Shown piece after piece: positions 10,060-37,655 of a stretch of DNA of 53,954 nt (the stretch's first letter is position 1; every line of letters begins with the position of its first letter). The stretch is from an uncultured archaeon (lineage in GTDB: Archaea; Aenigmatarchaeota; Aenigmatarchaeia; QMZP01). The position numbers and the translations under genes were made by a program. Location: NCBI GenBank assembly GCA_964501515.1, contig CAZCSS010000001.1, positions 1-53,954 on the forward strand, read 5' to 3'. The notes beneath the pieces are model-generated. The model had not been told where the DNA came from. It ran no database searches and was given only the letters and a program-made list of their open reading frames with translations.

Positions 10060-10376
10060 GGGCTGGTAGATCAATGGTAGATCGCCCGTTTCGCATGCGG
10101 GAGGCTCCGGGTTCGAAACCCTGCTTTAGAGGATGGAACAAAAGGAAAGAATCAATGATTCTTTCTTTCCAGTAATTGCCTTCTGCAAAAAGCAGGGAGT
10201 AAAACCGCAAGCAACGCATAGGTGTCTGATTCCCTGGCAGCGAAGAGGAACGAAGTCCCTGCCCTTGGCATGAGTGCGCACTGCCAAGGGCAGGCACAGC
10301 ACATCTCTCGCAATATGCTGCGAGATTCCTTCGCTCCGTCTGCAGGGAATCTCCTTCGAGAATCCCGGCCAGTCCA
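10060..10376 (+). tRNA. tRNA-Ala(CGC), split as join(10060..10117,10363..10376) by a 245-nt intron at position 59/60
   Basis: The D-arm is GATC/GATC and the anticodon arm is CCCGT-TTCGCAT-GCGGG. The T-stem CCGGG (10107-11) pairs with CCCGG (10364-68). The acceptor GGGCTGG pairs with CCAGTCC (10369-75), giving G3:U70, with discriminator A73. The sequence immediately contiguous with exon 1 gives no acceptor pairing. Confidence 0.85.
10118..10362 (+). other. tRNA intron with a BHB-like junction; 245 nt and highly structured
   Basis: The central helix is TTCG (10112-15) with CGAG (10357-60), flanked by 3-nt bulges AAA and AAT. Internal perfect helices are 10119-27/10189-97, 10145-52/10158-65, 10228-36/10343-51, 10258-70/10282-94 and 10306-12/10319-25. 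Confidence 0.75.
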
Positions 10377-31108: not shown

Positions 31109-31807
31109 CTACACCCTGACTTCCACCTTGCCAAAAAATGGCCTCAGGTCTTCTGCAAAAACCCTGAGCTCCCCGGCAGAATAGGGTTTCTCCTTCTGAT
31201 AGGATTTGTCCAGGGTTATGTTCGGCCGGAACTGCTGGAGCACATACTTTTCCGAGCCCTTCAGCCACCTTGCCATATTCATGAGATCTTCGCTGCTGTG
31301 AAGTATGGGGAGCACAGTGGTCCTGAACTCGTATCCAATCCCGCTTTCCCTTATAATCCTCACGCTCTTCTGTATGGCTGACTTATCCACCCTGGCATTC
31401 ACAACCTTCTCATACTTCTCCAGGGGGGCCTTGATGTCCATTGATACGTAGTCCAGAAGGTTCTTCGCCAGAAGGGATTCCAGCATCCCCGGGTTCGAGC
31501 CGTTTGTGTCCAGCTTGACCATATAGCCCAGTGATTTTATCCTGCTTATAAAGGAGGGCAAACTGCTGTAAATGGTGGGCTCACCTCCTGTTATCACCAC
31601 CCCGTCAAGCCACTGCTTTCTTTTCAGAAGAAACTCAATTACGCTCTTCTCTGGTATTGTCCTGAGCCGGGTGTTGGGTGTTTCCACAAGATCAGGGTTC
31701 TGGCAGAAGGGGCAACGGAAGTTGCATCCTCCTGTGAAAATCACGCATGACACCAGACCCGGATAATCCACTGCAGATGTTTTCTGAATGCCTTTTATGG
31801 GTATCAT
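31109..31807 (-). CDS. nrdG: Anaerobic ribonucleotide reductase activating protein (radical SAM)
   Basis: GGCNFRCPFCQNP. It starts 4 nt after the nrdD stop. Confidence 0.9.
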   Translation of the reverse strand: MIPIKGIQKTSAVDYPGLVSCVIFTGGCNFRCPFCQNPDLVETPNTRLRTIPEKSVIEFLLKRKQWLDGVVITGGEPTIYSSLPSFISRIKSLGYMVKLDTNGSNPGMLESLLAKNLLDYVSMDIKAPLEKYEKVVNARVDKSAIQKSVRIIRESGIGYEFRTTVLPILHSSEDLMNMARWLKGSEKYVLQQFRPNITLDKSYQKEKPYSAGELRVFAEDLRPFFGKVEVRV

Positions 31808-31811
31808 GGTA

Positions 31812-34388
31812 TCAACCCTTGCCGGCAGCGGCCCTGATGGGTTTCCTGTCTATGGTCTCGGGGGCAAACGTCTTTCTGAACTTCCATTCCTCCTGCTTAC
31901 CGGCATTCCAATTGGAAACAGGCCTGAAATAGCCAACAATCCTTGAAAAAACCTCATTCGGCTGGCCGCATATCGGGCACTTCTGAACCTCTCCCCTCAT
32001 GTAGCCGTGGCTCTTGCAAACGCTGAATGTTGGGGTTATGGAAAAATAAGGCAGTTTTGTGTTGTGCGCTATCTTTCTCACGAGTTCTCTTGTGGCCTTC
32101 CAGTCAGCCATGCTCTCTCCAAGGAAGGTGTGGAATATGGTCCCGCCTGTGTAGAGGGGTTGTATGTCATTCTGGTGCTCCAGGGCTTCCACAATGTCCT
32201 CGGTGTAGTCAACAGGAAGCTGGGTGGAGTTTGTCAGGAAGGGCTCGGATTCTCCTGCTGTTATTATATCGGGGTGGAGTTTCTTGTCAAGCCTGGCCAG
32301 CCTGTAGGATGTGGACTCCGCAGGGGTGGCCTCAAGGTTGTAGAGGTTGCCTGTCTCATTCTGGAACTCCTTCAGTTTTTCCCTCATGAACTTCAGAACC
32401 TTTATGGTGAATTCCTTCCCTTCGGAAGTGGCTATGCTCTTGTTCATGAAATTAAGGCAGCATTCATTCATCCCCACCAAACCGATGGTGGAGAAGTGGT
32501 TGTTAAACGTTCCCAGATAGGTCTTTGTGTAAGGCATGAGCCCGTTCTCCAGATTCTTGTTCACCACCCTTCTCTTTATCTCAAGCGCGTCCCTTGCTAT
32601 TTTCATGTAGTGCTCAAGCCTTTCGAAGAACTCCTGTTCTGTCTTGGACTCGTAACCAAGCCTGTTCATGTTCAGGGTAACCACCCCTATCGAGCCTGTG
32701 TTGTCGCCCGGCCCCCACATGCTGCCCGGCCTTTTCATAAGCTCCTTCTGGTTTATGTTGAGTCTGCAGCACATGGCCCTTATGGACCTGGGGTCAAGAT
32801 TGCTTCCGACATAGTTCTGGAAGTAAGGCGTTCCGTACTTCGCTGTCATCTGAAAAAGGAGTTTGGCGTTCTCTGAATCCCAGTCAAAGTCCCTTGTTAT
32901 ATTGTAAGTGGGAATGGGGAACGTGAATATCCTTCCCATGGCATCCCCTTCTATCATGACCTCCATAAAGGCCCTGTTTATCATGTCCATCTCCTTCTGG
33001 CAGTCTCCGTATGTGAAGTCCTGGGGCTTGCCTCCCACTATGGCAGGCTCGTTCCTCATATCCTCAGGCGCGACCCAGTCAAAGGTGAGGTTGGAAAAGG
33101 GATACTGCGACCCCCACCTTGACGGTATGTTCAGAGAAAAAACAAGCTGCTGCATGTTCTGCTTCACGCTTTTGTAATCGAGATTATCGGCCCTTACAAA
33201 CGGTGCCAAAAGCGTGTCCACGGATGAGAAAGCCTGTGCTCCTGCAAACTCCATCTGCAGGCACCCTATGTAATTCACCATCTGGTGGACCACTGTGGAA
33301 AGGTGCTTTGCCGGCTTGCAGTCCACCTTGCCCTTCACCCCCCCAAAACCCATCACAAGAAGATTCTTCAGGCTCCAGCCGGCACAATAGCCTATAACAC
33401 CATGCGAAAGATCATGCAGGTGTATGTAGCCCTTTCTGTGCGCATCAGCTATAACAGGCGTGTACATCTGGGTGAGGTTATAGTTGGCCATCACCCTGCC
33501 TGCAGCATACAAAAGCAGCCCGGAGAAAGAGTACTGTTCATTGCTGTTTTCCTTCACCCTCCAGTCCATCTGGTCAATGTAGGATGATATTGTGTCATGA
33601 ACGTCAATCATTACATTTCTGGTTTCCCTGAGTTTTTCCCGCTGCTTTCTGTAGAGTATGTAGGCCTTGGCCGTGCTGGCGTGTCCGTTCTCTATGAGAA
33701 TCTTCTCCACAGTGTCCTGTATGTCCTCTACCTGAGGGATGTCCTTGCTCCCGAATTTTCCTTCAAGCGCCTCCACAACCTTGTAGGAGAGCTTCTCAGC
33801 GATCGACCTGTCCTTGCCCCCCACTGACTGGGCGGCCTTCCATATGGCCTCTGTTATCCTTTCCTGGTCAAACGGGACAACGTTCCCGCCCCTCTTCCTT
33901 ATCTTTGTTATCAGTGATTTTTTCCTTTTCTTTATCCTCTCGTCAACGAGTCTCTTCAGTTCATTCTCAAACTCGGTGATGTCCCTGAACTCCTTGTATA
34001 TTGAAGCAAACCTTATGTAGGCCACCTTGTTGATGTTCTTGAGTTTGCCTATCACAATCTCTCCCAGTCTGGATGATGATATCTCAGTGGTGCCTGTTTT
34101 CCTGAGTTCTGACTCTATCTCATTGACAGCATCATCAATCTGGCTCCTGGAAACAGGCGTTTTCTCGCATGCCTTTATTATGCTCGACTGAAGTTTATCG
34201 CGGTCGTAACTTTCCCTTCTTCCGTCTTTCTTGACCACTGTCAGGTCCAGGCTCTCTATTTTCTCATAAGTGGTGAACCTCTTTCCGCAGGAAGAGCATT
34301 GCCTTCTCCTTCTTGTGGCAGCAAGTCCTCCTGTCTCCCTCTTGTCAATAACCCTGTTGTCTTCAGAACCGCAATACGGACATTTCAT
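31812..34388 (-). CDS. nrdD: Anaerobic ribonucleoside-triphosphate reductase NrdD with a full-length NrdR-like module fused at the N-terminus (about aa 1-150)
   Basis: The N-terminus reads MKCPYCGSEDNRVIDKR...RRRRQCSSCGKRFTTYE...KVAYIRFASIYKEFRDITEF (NrdR Zn-ribbon plus ATP-cone). A second ATP-cone follows (KRGGNVVPFDQERITEAI), then the NrdD core. The C-terminus has CPICG and the glycyl-radical site SRIVGYFRP. Confidence 0.9.
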   Translation of the reverse strand: MKCPYCGSEDNRVIDKRETGGLAATRRRRQCSSCGKRFTTYEKIESLDLTVVKKDGRRESYDRDKLQSSIIKACEKTPVSRSQIDDAVNEIESELRKTGTTEISSSRLGEIVIGKLKNINKVAYIRFASIYKEFRDITEFENELKRLVDERIKKRKKSLITKIRKRGGNVVPFDQERITEAIWKAAQSVGGKDRSIAEKLSYKVVEALEGKFGSKDIPQVEDIQDTVEKILIENGHASTAKAYILYRKQREKLRETRNVMIDVHDTISSYIDQMDWRVKENSNEQYSFSGLLLYAAGRVMANYNLTQMYTPVIADAHRKGYIHLHDLSHGVIGYCAGWSLKNLLVMGFGGVKGKVDCKPAKHLSTVVHQMVNYIGCLQMEFAGAQAFSSVDTLLAPFVRADNLDYKSVKQNMQQLVFSLNIPSRWGSQYPFSNLTFDWVAPEDMRNEPAIVGGKPQDFTYGDCQKEMDMINRAFMEVMIEGDAMGRIFTFPIPTYNITRDFDWDSENAKLLFQMTAKYGTPYFQNYVGSNLDPRSIRAMCCRLNINQKELMKRPGSMWGPGDNTGSIGVVTLNMNRLGYESKTEQEFFERLEHYMKIARDALEIKRRVVNKNLENGLMPYTKTYLGTFNNHFSTIGLVGMNECCLNFMNKSIATSEGKEFTIKVLKFMREKLKEFQNETGNLYNLEATPAESTSYRLARLDKKLHPDIITAGESEPFLTNSTQLPVDYTEDIVEALEHQNDIQPLYTGGTIFHTFLGESMADWKATRELVRKIAHNTKLPYFSITPTFSVCKSHGYMRGEVQKCPICGQPNEVFSRIVGYFRPVSNWNAGKQEEWKFRKTFAPETIDRKPIRAAAGKG

Positions 34389-34429
34389 TCATAACACCTC
34401 CTGACCCCACGAGATTCGTGCGCCCTCTC

Positions 34430-34780
34430 TCAGCCAATGTAGCTGTGAACGTCCTCTTCAGCCACCACGTCCGAGACAATCTTGCCCTTCTTGACCGGTT
34501 TCTTGGGGGACGGTATCTTGCCGAACCTCTTCTCATAGTTGGCCAGATTCTCCTTGAGTATCTGCAGGAAGACCTTTATGAGATCCGGATCAAGTATTAT
34601 TGTGTTGTGCTTGACCGCTATGGTCTGCTTCTTCTGCTCGCCAACTGTGTCGATTCTGGGCGTGACCTGCTTGAAGTTTATGATGAACTTCGCGGGGCTA
34701 TGAATTATGCTTATTGAATTGGCATAGAACGCCTCTTTTCCGTGGTCAACCCTGACCTCTATCTGTTTTTTGCTTTCCAT
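34430..34780 (-). CDS. DUF3467 protein
   Basis: AFYANSISIIHSPAKFIINFKQVTPRID...LDPDLIKVFLQILKENLANYEKRFG. GTG 34789 is an alternative start. Confidence 0.7.
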   Translation of the reverse strand: MESKKQIEVRVDHGKEAFYANSISIIHSPAKFIINFKQVTPRIDTVGEQKKQTIAVKHNTIILDPDLIKVFLQILKENLANYEKRFGKIPSPKKPVKKGKIVSDVVAEEDVHSYIG

Positions 34781-34807
34781 GGGCTTCACTTCTTCCCAAT
34801 GATAAAA

Positions 34808-34823
34808 TAATCAATATATTGTA
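34808..34823. promoter_or_regulatory. NrdR-box-like palindrome 1 (aatCAATATATTGtat), overlapping a TATA-like element
   Basis: The 10-bp core CAATATATTG is a perfect palindrome and fits the NrdR-box core CwAtATaTwG. It lies 19-34 bp upstream of the operon's first start codon. Confidence 0.55.
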
Positions 34824-34839
34824 TATATCTCTAAGAGAT

Positions 34840-34855
34840 AACACAACATATTGTG
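34840..34855. promoter_or_regulatory. NrdR-box-like palindrome 2 (acaCAACATATTGtgc)
   Basis: 14 of 16 positions match the NrdR-box consensus as I recall it (acaCwAtATaTwGtgt). It starts exactly 32 bp from box 1. Confidence 0.55.
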
Positions 34856-34956
34856 CCAAGCAATATTATATTAGGCAAAAGCCCTTTATAAGAATTTTGC
34901 TTCCCAAATATACATTTTAAAGGCTCTTCTTGAAAAACAACCGCACACAGCTCTGC

Positions 34957-35863
34957 TTATGAGAAAAGCCCTGCCTCCCTGGCGTGCTCAACAACCTCCA
35001 TGTACTCTTCATGTGAGAGCGGCCTTGAGATCTCAGGATACTCTCCTGCCCTCCAGCACGGCCTGTACTGCGGCAATATGTTAACGTAGGCGTTTCCGAG
35101 ATTCTTTCCTATCCAGCCCACTATGGGCTTTGCATCGCATTCTATATGTCCGGGCATCACAAGCAGGCGGATTATAAGATCGCCTTGTCTTCCGGCAAAC
35201 AGGATGTTTCTCTTTGCTGTTTTTGGATATCCGGGCGCCTGGCTGAGCCGCACAGCGCATCTCTCGCTAAAATAGCGGAAATCCAGCAGATAAATGTCCA
35301 CTATTCCTTTCAAAAGCCCGGCAGCCTCGCTGGAATAATAGGAATTGGAATTGAATATCACCGGGATGTCAGACTTCACGTGCCTGAGAGTCTCCAGGAT
35401 GAACGGGATGAATGGTGTGGGGTCTCCGCCCACAAAGTTTACATTAAGGGCACCTGTCCTTGCAGCAGAATCTATCCACCTGGCTGCCCGCTCAGGAAAC
35501 CATGCTTCGCCATGCTCAGGACTCATGCTTTCAGGGCATTTTGACAGTAGACGCACCTCATGGTGCATCCTGACATGAACAGCGTCCCGCTTGGAACCAG
35601 TTCGGGCTCCTCCCCGTAGTGGAGATGCGCCCCAAAAAGCAGCGGCTCTTTCCCTGCACGGCAGAAACCCTTTTCTCCATTTGTTCTGTCAGCCCGCATC
35701 TCCTCACGCAGAGAACGCAGTTTTTCAGCATCCTGCGGGCTTTTCTTGTCTTCCCTTCAAGCGCACCGCTATCCGCGGCCTTCCTGAACCCCGGCTTCTC
35801 GTCTCCTGAGAGGATTCTCCGGTACCGGGGGAGGGCAGACATGTCCATGAAAGCCCTGCTCAT
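34957..35863 (-). pseudogene. PflX-like radical SAM protein (pyruvate formate-lyase activase homolog) interrupted by two 1-nt frameshifts
   Basis: Three consecutive frames carry the parts of one protein: LKNCVLCVRRCG, then ADRTNGEKGFCRAG...HLHYGEEPELVPSGTLFMSGCTMRCVYCQNA, then ESMSPEHGE...ALNVNFVGGDPTP. The frame switches fall at the ccc run 35693-35695 and the ggg run 35534-35536. Confidence 0.75.
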
Positions 35864-36188: not shown

Positions 36189-37655
36189 TTATCTTGCCTT
36201 CCTGAAAAGTATCTCCCCCTTTTTGGGCCTTCCTGAGAAAGGCCTGAACTCCAGACCCTCAAGGCTCCCTGTTTTGACCCCAAGCTGACTGTTGATTTTC
36301 TCACTGGTCTCCGGAAGGAATGCTGAAATCAGGATTGAGATGATTCTCAGGGATTCCAGTACGTTGTATAGAACCTCACCAAGCCTCTCCCCCTCAAGCC
36401 TCCATGGCTCCTTCTCATTAATGTAGCGGTTCGCTGCCCTGATGAATCCCCAAATCTCATCAAGAGCGTGGTGAATCTCAAGCCTCTCAACCCTTTCCAT
36501 TATTCTCTTCGGTTTCAGGCTCTTTACAAGCCCTGGGTCAGGCTCTCCCTTAATCTTCCCCCCGAATTTCTCTGCCATCGTGAGAGCCCTGCTCAGCAGG
36601 TTTCCAAGGTCGTTCGCAAGCTCGTTGTTCAGCCTCTGTTTCAGGGCCTCTTCCGAGAAGTCGCCGTCCTCCCCGAGGGGGATTTCCCTTAGAAGGAAAT
36701 ATCTTAGGGCATCTGTTCCGTATTTCCCTGCCATGTAAACCGGATCTATGGCATTCCCCAAGGACTTGCTTATCTTCTCGCCGTTTACAGTGAAAAACCC
36801 GTGCGCAAAAATCATTCTGGGAAGGGGATATTCAGCACTCATAAGCATTGCAGGCCATATTATGGCATGAAACCTCAATATGTCCTTTGCCATCACATGG
36901 ATATCAGCAGGCCATCTGGAGGGGTTGGCTGATATGTAATTCACAAGCGCATCAAACCAGACCCAAAAAACATGCTCCCTGTCGTTTGGAAGAGGAATGC
37001 CCCAACCTCTGCCGGGTCTGGAAATGCTTATGTCCCTAAGACCGTCCCTGATCAGGTTCACAATCTCCCTTTTTCTTGTTTCAGGTCTTATAAAGTTCGG
37101 GTTCTCCTTTATATGCTCCAGCAGCCTGCTCTCATATTTTGAGAGGCGAAAGAAATAGTTCTCCTCTTCCAGCGCCTGGGGCAGGATTTTATGTACCGGG
37201 CATTTCCCGCCTTTCAGGTCCTTCTCTGTATAAAACGCCTCGCAGCTCTCGCAATAAAGGCCCCTGTAGCTGCCCTTGTATATGTCTCTGTTTTTAAACA
37301 CCTTCATATAGAATTCCTCAACTGTTTTTCTGTGCCTTGATGATGTCGTGCGTATGAAGTCGTCATTGGACATTCCAAGTTTTTTCCATGTGTTTCTCCA
37401 TTTCGAGGACATGAAGTCTGCATATTTTGCCACGTTTTTGTACCCGAACTTCCGGGCACCCTGCCTGGTCTTGCCGGAGTTCTCGTCAGTGCCGGTAAGA
37501 AAAAACACGTCCTTCCCAAGCAGCCTGTGCCACCTTGCCAGCGCGTCGCATACTATCATGGTGTAGGCGTGCCCTATGTGCGCTGTGTCGTTCAGATAGA
37601 ATATCGGCGTGGTTATGAAGAACCTCTCCTTTCCCCTGCTGCTTTTTCCTGGCAT
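36189..37655 (-). CDS. metG: Methionyl-tRNA synthetase (core form, no C-terminal dimerisation or tRNA-binding appendix)
   Basis: HIGH motif AHIGHAYT, zinc knuckle CESCEAFY...CPVH, and KMSKS variant KISKSLGN. Confidence 0.95.
   Translation of the reverse strand: MPGKSSRGKERFFITTPIFYLNDTAHIGHAYTMIVCDALARWHRLLGKDVFFLTGTDENSGKTRQGARKFGYKNVAKYADFMSSKWRNTWKKLGMSNDDFIRTTSSRHRKTVEEFYMKVFKNRDIYKGSYRGLYCESCEAFYTEKDLKGGKCPVHKILPQALEEENYFFRLSKYESRLLEHIKENPNFIRPETRKREIVNLIRDGLRDISISRPGRGWGIPLPNDREHVFWVWFDALVNYISANPSRWPADIHVMAKDILRFHAIIWPAMLMSAEYPLPRMIFAHGFFTVNGEKISKSLGNAIDPVYMAGKYGTDALRYFLLREIPLGEDGDFSEEALKQRLNNELANDLGNLLSRALTMAEKFGGKIKGEPDPGLVKSLKPKRIMERVERLEIHHALDEIWGFIRAANRYINEKEPWRLEGERLGEVLYNVLESLRIISILISAFLPETSEKINSQLGVKTGSLEGLEFRPFSGRPKKGEILFRKAR

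Follow-up and report, generated by a model that had tools for sequence, protein, structure and literature searches.

The 48-bp element at positions 34809–34856 of the 53,954-bp stretch of DNA analysed here (the window) is likely to be a functional NrdR operator of the operon DUF3467–nrdR::nrdD–nrdG in a DPANN archaeon, probably an Aenigmatarchaeota relative, and we expect that the operon is repressed through it by its own fused enzyme when dATP is high. Judged from its sequence, the DNA element is a canonical NrdR operator, in which we found every sequence-level feature of membership in this class. The part that is non-standard is the context, namely an archaeal BRE/TATA promoter and a repressor that is translationally fused to the reductase. 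The operon is probably autoregulated by this fused enzyme-repressor.

A pair of NrdR boxes and the operon behind it

The operator consists of two 16-bp boxes and a 16-bp linker (34825–34840, no strand), and the distance between the two boxes is 32 bp from start to start. Both boxes are read on the minus strand: box A (34841–34856) is the upstream, promoter-proximal box in the direction of transcription, and box B (34809–34824) lies nearer to the genes; they correspond to the second and first boxes of the initial annotation, respectively. Box A, ACACAACATATTGTGC (minus strand, GCACAATATGTTGTGT), has two mismatches to the consensus ACACWATATATWGTGT, and box B, AATCAATATATTGTAT (minus strand, ATACAATATATTGATT), has three. 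The initial annotation had placed these palindromes at 34840–34855 and 34808–34823; the palindromes are real, but their true positions lie 1 nt to the right. Its counts of 13 of 16 matching positions for the first box and 14 of 16 for the second proved correct on recount, as did the perfectly palindromic 10-bp core of the first box (CAATATATTG) and the 32 bp between the box starts.

It has been reported, from mutational and bioinformatic analysis, that bacterial NrdR boxes have six highly conserved positions: C4, A6, A8, T9, T11 and G13 (PMC13584703, 2026). All six are found in box A and again in box B, and the pair fits the box-pair regular expression of the same study, with a core spacer of 22 nt. 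The spacing criterion that we applied to NrdR operators was a linker of 15–16 bp (14–17 bp tolerated), corresponding to about three helical turns from centre to centre, and the linker of the window falls within the typical 15–16 bp class. Box B is the weaker of the two boxes (11.7 versus 20.3 bits, by the archaeal matrix described below), and its flanks read AAT..TAT where the consensus has ACA..TGT.

Across both strands of the window, matches to ACACWATATATWGTGT with three or fewer mismatches were found only at box A and box B, where 0.29 were expected; two or more such matches anywhere in the window were seen in 4 of 100 shuffles. Among pairs spaced 31–33 bp apart with up to nine summed mismatches, the box A/B pair, with a sum of five, was the only one in the window, and 20,000 shuffles of the spacer (167 bp, 31% GC), made with dinucleotides preserved, gave no sum of seven or fewer. 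At about 2,000 other AT-rich positions of the window there were no box matches, even at four mismatches. We also scored the window with an archaeal weight matrix for which 42 boxes from other archaeal loci were used and those of the window left out. Box A was the best match in the window and box B the second; the pair scored 32.0 bits versus 9.3 bits for the next-best pair, and within 34780–34960 the two boxes were the only 16-mers above 0 bits. Taken together, the uniqueness of the boxes in the window, the shuffle results, the lack of boxes at other AT-rich positions and the matrix ranking exclude chance as the source of the pair. The initial annotation had allowed that comparable matches might occur at random in AT-rich spacers; the window scan, the shuffles and the matrix all found otherwise.

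The published regular expression is a loose one: the window has five matches to it, one of which (34883–34922) adjoins the operator. We dropped the four matches other than the box pair, since none is among the top matrix scores of the window and the one within the spacer scores 0 bits or less.

The operon lies on the minus strand in the order DUF3467, nrdR::nrdD fusion, nrdG. Its first gene (34430–34780) encodes 116 amino acids from ATG 34780 and matches Pfam PF11950 (45.8 bits, cut-off 25); a search of the PDB found no relative of the DUF3467 protein. This gene most likely starts at ATG 34780, 28 nt from box B, and not at GTG 34789. The earlier placement of the boxes 19–66 bp upstream of the first gene needs correcting accordingly, as its 19 bp imply the GTG and the likelier ATG leaves a gap of 28 nt. 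A Shine-Dalgarno-like GAAGTGA (34786–34792, minus strand), of putative function, precedes the ATG by 5 nt, and AGAAGTGAA occupies the same place in the closest related locus, L081. The fusion gene is a single reading frame (858 aa; 34388–31812, minus strand): its NrdR module, residues 1–150, comprises an N-terminal CxxC...CxxC Zn ribbon and a first ATP-cone (33939–34388, minus strand; TIGR00244, the NrdR family of PF22811 plus PF03477), and the rest of the frame comprises a linker, a second ATP-cone and NrdD (31812–33938, minus strand; NF006126 and Pfam). The nrdG gene for the activating radical-SAM enzyme (31109–31807, minus strand; TIGR02495 NrdG2, 218.5 bits, cut-off 131.15) starts 4 nt past the end of the fusion gene. 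NrdD and NrdG, adjacent and both above their equivalog cut-offs, identify a class III ribonucleotide reductase operon, and relatives show nrdG in the same gene order.

Upstream of the operon, a frameshifted radical-SAM gene on the minus strand ends at 34957 and is followed by a T-run at 34940–34933. This fragment had no tblastn match in any related locus retrieved, and it therefore lies outside the conserved neighbourhood. Scanning with Rfam found nothing in or near the operator, either in the window or in six sister loci. The window also encodes archaeal-type genes, among them a Hel308-type helicase with archaeal domain 4, a DRG-type GTPase, and HerA with an Mre11-like phosphoesterase.

Conservation of the operator and its place on the promoter

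From GTDB genomes, metagenomes and an exact-protein look-up we obtained 27 distinct archaeal-type fusion loci. The comparison of orthologous promoters proposed in the initial annotation recovered the same tandem box pair upstream of the operon in 25 of these 27 loci, at a spacing of 31–33 bp and mostly of 32 bp; the pair is missing from L086, for which 123 nt of upstream sequence exist, and from L165, where a single good box is present. In 21 of the loci, 30 boxes with three or fewer mismatches were present in 8.8 kb of upstream DNA, and none were present in the remaining 124.7 kb, which include 40 kb at ≤35% GC. Furthermore, when each upstream region was shuffled 300 times, no shuffle equalled the pair in 18 of the 21 loci. 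Hit density had also been proposed as a check, and no box matches were found in the other AT-rich DNA of the window or of the 125 kb of related loci.

The 42 archaeal boxes were selected with the bacterial consensus, which makes their agreement with it partly circular: C4 was found in 39 of 42, A6 in 42, A8 in 39, T9 in 39, T11 in 38 and G13 in 42. Positions 7 and 10 are variable in these boxes, as they are in bacteria. The pattern of conserved and variable positions is not circular, and is not an artefact of selection, because the search weighted all positions equally.

The closest relative, L081 (83% amino-acid identity), has the same layout as the window with DUF3467 first, the DUF3467 proteins being 57% identical in amino-acid sequence. 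Between the two loci 15 of 16 positions are identical in box A and 14 of 16 in box B, but only about 5 of 16 in the linker. An alignment of four promoters (window, L081, L082 and L084) gave a similar picture, in which the BRE/TATA and the two box cores form the invariant blocks and the linker varies.

The best candidate for an archaeal BRE/TATA in the spacer is AAAATTCTTATAAAG (34884–34898, minus strand), which contains the TATA 8-mer CTTATAAA (34892–34885, minus strand) and whose promoter function is predicted. By a BRE/TATA matrix trained on 21 related promoters, this element scored 6.1 bits versus 0.9 for the next in the spacer, a value weaker than those of the training sites (11–17.8 bits). 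It sits in an invariant block of the four-way alignment, aligned with the TATA of the relatives, and 28 nt separate it from box A. The initial annotation had described the boxes as overlapping a TATA-like tatatat. That stretch (34822–34828) scored 0.9 bits with the BRE/TATA matrix, and relatives do not share the linker sequence; the stretch is not a conserved TATA, and the conserved BRE/TATA is instead the element at 34898–34884, upstream of box A.

Nearly all related promoters carry a classical archaeal element, (c/g)AAAnnTTTAWATA, upstream of box A, and three distance classes, of about 9, 16–22 and 24–29 nt, separate box A from the 3' end of the TATA. Archaeal TATA elements are centred near −26/−27. 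From this spacing and the distance classes, box A is expected to lie over or just past the transcription start in the related loci. For the window, archaeal spacing predicts a transcription start zone at 34859–34863 (minus strand), near 34861 and about 23 nt past the 3' end of the TATA; box A would then span about +6 to +21, and box B about +38 to +53. Because the conserved BRE/TATA is upstream of box A, the operator would cover the predicted transcription start.

In a Treponema fusion locus, the boxes adjoin a sigma-70-like TTGACA −35 hexamer, which suggests that one operator design serves both archaeal and bacterial promoter types. Our scan of 34300–35100 in the window for sigma-70 promoters and terminators gave weak consensus matches at about shuffle expectation, and such elements are irrelevant for an archaeon.

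The fused protein and alternative explanations of the boxes

Residues 1–147 of the fusion match the TIGR00244 NrdR equivalog over the entire model (1–147 of 147; 183.6 bits, cut-off 124.65), and residues 161–842 match NF006126, a class III reductase including its own ATP-cone (1069 bits, cut-off 548). Pfam likewise reports NRDD and two ATP-cone stretches. There is no stop codon at the junction of NrdR and NrdD, and the NrdR module is thus not free-standing, unlike NrdR family proteins of about 140–220 residues. Residues 1–149 align without gaps to E. coli NrdR (PDB 9fxk, E = 1e-40), and residues 1–41 align without gaps to S. coelicolor NrdR (7p37/7p3f). In the S. coelicolor NrdR–DNA complex, R12, R26–29 and R37 touch the phosphate backbone and D15 and R17 are in the major groove, where mutation of D15 or R17 impairs DNA binding. 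The fusion has R12, D15, R17, R26–29 and R37, together with the zinc cysteines C3, C6, C31 and C34, at the same positions as the S. coelicolor protein. The fused module recognised in the initial annotation is accordingly a complete NrdR, both by its TIGR00244 score and by its retention of all S. coelicolor DNA-contact residues.

In an alignment of 35 fusion proteins, which are 61–75% identical to the window protein, D15, R17, R26–29, C31, C34, R37 and FTTYE (38–42) are invariant, and C3, C6 and position 12 (Lys or Arg) are nearly so. The invariance of DNA-contact residues in the fusions argues for selection for DNA binding within the fusion itself. Of the 120 protein clusters that match best, most have the recorded architecture Zn_ribbon_NrdR, ATP-cone and NRDD. 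Named fusion relatives are MAGs of Aenigmatarchaeota, Woesearchaeota and Nanoarchaeota, and in bacteria the same fusion occurs in Treponema and Chloroflexota. Some of the fusions bear the JGI annotation 'anaerobic ribonucleoside-triphosphate reductase/transcriptional regulator NrdR'.

An AlphaFold model made from the 35-sequence alignment is of moderate quality (pLDDT 72.9, pTM 0.62) and, being a monomer, is silent on oligomers and DNA binding. In it the Zn ribbon is followed, as expected, by cone 1, a low-confidence junction (residues 150–156), cone 2 and NrdD. This junction could be cleavable, and it bears on the question of which protein binds the boxes. The operator might be real and its binder either a proteolytic N-terminal fragment of the fusion or a free-standing NrdR encoded elsewhere, with the fused Zn ribbon being a relic or having another role. 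The visible genome amounts to 54 kb, and the characterised NrdRs are all free proteins of 140–220 aa. We nevertheless consider a separate binder unlikely: the DNA-contact residues and zinc ligands would hardly stay invariant, or nearly so, across 35 fusion proteins if the module were a relic, and the fusion and the boxes recur together in most related loci. In addition, residues 150–258 contain no Met from which an independent NrdD could start together with its cone, and no second nrdR is present within the 54-kb window. The fusion itself is the binder that we prefer.

A different kind of explanation is that the palindromes act as a hairpin in the 5'-leader RNA or as a DNA cruciform, with effects on mRNA stability or translation, and that their likeness to NrdR boxes is secondary. 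For the predicted leader of 84 nt, the folding energy is −24 kcal/mol (z = −3.9), and the linker is palindromic both in the window (34826–34840, TATCTCT-A-AGAGATA) and in L081 despite their differing sequences (shuffle fractions of 0.005 and 0.013, respectively). However, two copies of one palindrome can pair, so that hairpin potential is automatic and a tandem operator suffices to produce it. In the other archaeal loci examined, the linker is not palindromic and the folds are weak, and several relatives have their TATA 9 nt from box A, which would leave box A not fully transcribed. Furthermore, base identities, beyond complementarity, are fixed at the six positions that bacterial NrdR reads. 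An RNA hairpin, automatic with tandem palindromes and not general across loci, was therefore rejected as the primary explanation, and we hold this whole account to be very improbable. The dyad symmetry of the linker in the window and L081 is an unexplained extra; the other loci examined show none beyond that of shuffles.

Least probable, to the point of being barely credible, is that the operon was transferred from bacteria together with boxes that are now a non-functional remnant, or that AT-rich DNA produced the match by chance: although the fusion in Treponema and Chloroflexota makes transfer between domains plausible and a loose regular expression finds five places in the window, its other four matches are not box-like by matrix, none of the 20,000 shuffles equalled the observed pair, the 40 kb of AT-rich DNA of related loci contain no boxes, the boxes are kept while flanks and linker diverge, and their position relative to the archaeal TATA is consistent across loci.

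Known systems and a model of control

Operators of E. coli nrdDG, L. monocytogenes nrdDG and S. coelicolor nrdRJ resemble that of the window in having two partially palindromic 16-bp boxes, the six conserved positions and a linker of 15–16 bp, and box A, read on the operon strand, is identical at 13 of 16 positions to box 2 of E. coli nrdDG (CCCAATATGTTGTATT). Bacterial NrdR operators cover the core promoter or the start of the RNR operon, and by its predicted start the window operator would do likewise. Unlike bacterial operators that lie over −35/−10 hexamers, however, it is downstream of an archaeal BRE/TATA, and its cognate NrdR is not free. Streptomyces nrdRJ also has regulator and reductase in one transcription unit behind one box pair, with NrdR autoregulating; there, NrdR and the class II reductase NrdJ are separate proteins, whereas in the window NrdR is fused to a class III NrdD with its own ATP-cone.

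In archaea, NrdR is known beside RNR genes in the haloarchaeal operons nrdR-nrdA-nrdB and nrdR-nrdB-nrdA, which have been ascribed to bacterial transfer (Lundin et al. 2010, PMC3019208). These operons belong to Halobacteria and combine a free-standing nrdR with a class I RNR, in contrast to the fused, class III arrangement of the window in DPANN; in the literature searched we found no operator analysis of them. Recent papers describe NrdR as rare in archaea or as present in 22% of archaeal genomes, one 2025 preprint describes it as having no archaeal orthologues, and genome-wide surveys of NrdR boxes have been made in bacterial genomes only. Our literature search found no description of a natural NrdR–NrdD fusion, or of NrdR boxes in DPANN, although either may be described elsewhere. 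The single match for 'NrdRD' was the name of a primer and not a fusion.

PutA, BirA and NadR are bifunctional enzyme-repressors ('trigger enzymes') that repress their own operon in response to a pathway metabolite. The fusion resembles them in carrying enzyme and repressor in one polypeptide, its bifunctionality being predicted; it is unrelated to them in sequence, and they bind DNA by RHH or HTH domains where the fusion has a Zn ribbon. MDR1, LrpA and Phr, archaeal repressors with binding sites at the TATA or the start or just past it, block recruitment of RNA polymerase without necessarily displacing TBP/TFB. Their operators, like that of the window, lie between the TATA and early transcribed DNA; they belong to unrelated families, and for the window both the start and the blocked step are predicted.

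On these grounds we propose the following course of events. A rise of dATP over ATP would load the NrdR modules (each a Zn ribbon and an ATP-cone) with dATP and ATP, and the loaded modules would, on the model of bacterial NrdR, assemble into a DNA-binding tetramer, a step that is putative for a module tethered to a dimeric 98-kDa enzyme. Each box would then be bound by one pair of Zn ribbons, the two pairs lying three turns apart on one face of the helix, with the DNA sharply bent. With the operator at about +6 to +53, the bound protein would stop RNA polymerase recruitment or promoter escape; we propose such a block because the operator lies over the predicted start and by analogy with the archaeal start-site repressors. 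With the NrdR module built into the NrdD chain, the reductase would be the repressor of its own synthesis, and transcription would be under direct feedback from both the amount of enzyme and the dATP/ATP ratio.

We lean, if only slightly, towards a more specific form of this model. According to it, the 98-kDa NrdR–NrdD itself is the repressor and blocks the archaeal pre-initiation complex at its own promoter when dATP is high, while the two ATP-cones set transcription and catalysis separately. As part of this self-repressor reading, the fusion may be a bacterial-type nucleotide-sensing 'trigger enzyme' that acts on the archaeal basal transcription machinery. If it is true, the single cone of relatives of about 755 aa would serve both transcription and catalysis, and the extra dyad symmetry of the operator in the sub-lineage of the window may add a structural layer of control.

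These findings bear on annotation. Genes for the fusion are now named 'ribonucleoside triphosphate reductase', and the predicted regulatory module would add to that name. Predicted co-regulation in the operon gives the DUF3467 gene its first functional link, which is to dNTP metabolism. More broadly, NrdR is treated in the literature as an essentially bacterial master regulator of dNTP supply; the window locus and its relatives place a canonical NrdR operator, as judged by sequence, on archaeal BRE/TATA promoters in many DPANN lineages, with the repressor always fused to the enzyme that it would control. They offer a system for asking how a bacterial-type repressor interferes with the archaeal, eukaryote-like transcription machinery, whether a large metabolic enzyme doubles as its own transcription factor, and how two ATP-cones, or one in the shorter relatives, split allosteric and transcriptional control.

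Linker and leader of the NrdR operator

We found that the 16-bp linker separating the window's pair of NrdR boxes is itself palindromic (TATCTCT-A-AGAGATA, 34826-34840). The linker of L081, the closest relative of the window, is also palindromic, with 6 of 8 pairs formed (L081 406-421), and the two linkers share only about 5 of 16 bases. Because the linker is palindromic, the 48-bp operator as a whole forms a long imperfect palindrome that, if transcribed, would fold into a hairpin of about 19 bp. This feature was not found in the other archaeal loci examined and is confined to the two loci, the window and L081, in which a DUF3467 gene comes first.

The sister loci (approximately 74% amino-acid identity) lack DUF3467 and carry a conserved leader of 115-170 nt between box B and the start codon of the fusion (L082 3887-4000; L084 3886-4000; L166 1331-1500; L167 1384-1500; L168 1021-1158; L169 95-238). 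The leader begins with TGTCATGG, contains a candidate long-range helix formed by TCTCCCCGTT and AACGGGGATT, and ends in a strong ribosome-binding site, AAGGAGTTGATG. An Rfam scan of these six loci matched the leader to no family.

Genes upstream of the operator and a tRNA-like sequence

Immediately upstream of the operator lies a radical-SAM gene (34957-35863, minus strand) that is broken across three reading frames: 35863-35558, 35699-35523, which holds the CxxxCxxC cluster motif, and 35568-34957, all on the minus strand. The three frames imply two frameshifts, meaning either that the gene is a pseudogene or that the assembly is wrong here; no counterpart of this gene was found in related loci. 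The gene for methionyl-tRNA synthetase (MetRS) is located just upstream of the nrd operon (36189-37655), and it occupies the same position in the Aenigmatarchaeota-type relatives that were compared (L082 and L084). This conserved synteny between MetRS and nrd supports the taxonomic placement of the window.

Elsewhere in the window, at 10066-10124 on the plus strand, Rfam reported a tRNA match of 35.6 bits covering model positions 7-64 of 71, and ARAGORN called no tRNAs across the whole window. This sequence seems to include a D arm, an anticodon arm (CGC, Ala) and a T arm and to be without a matching 3' acceptor strand. It may represent a tRNA that is truncated, or an archaeal tRNA of unusual form.

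Variants of the fusion in archaea and bacteria

Related fusion proteins differ in their architecture. Many of them, including P0046 and P0055 (about 755 aa, from relatives and not encoded in the window), consist of the NrdR zinc ribbon, one ATP-cone only, and NrdD; in such proteins a single cone would need to serve as both the nucleotide sensor of the repressor and the activity site of the enzyme. Several other NrdR-NrdD fusions are 1,070-1,280 aa long (P0002, encoded at L081 825-4670, P0012, P0013, P0043, P0058, P0076 and P0078), and precomputed Pfam domains place an intein within the NrdD part of P0002, P0043, P0058, P0076 and P0078.

The same fusion is also present in bacteria, namely in Treponema and Treponemataceae and in Chloroflexota, and the DNA upstream of it contains NrdR boxes there too (L008, L010, L013, L014, L057, L060, L068, L077 and L105-L107). 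At several of these loci, a sigma-70-like TTGACA -35 hexamer directly precedes the first NrdR box. The existence of bacterial fusions with upstream NrdR boxes suggests that the fused gene was transferred between bacteria and DPANN archaea.

DUF3467 as the first gene of the operon

In the window, as in L081, the operon behind the NrdR operator opens with a gene for a DUF3467 protein (34430-34780, minus strand), for which a PDB search found no related solved structure. By this position, the DUF3467 family gains its first regulatory link to dNTP metabolism.
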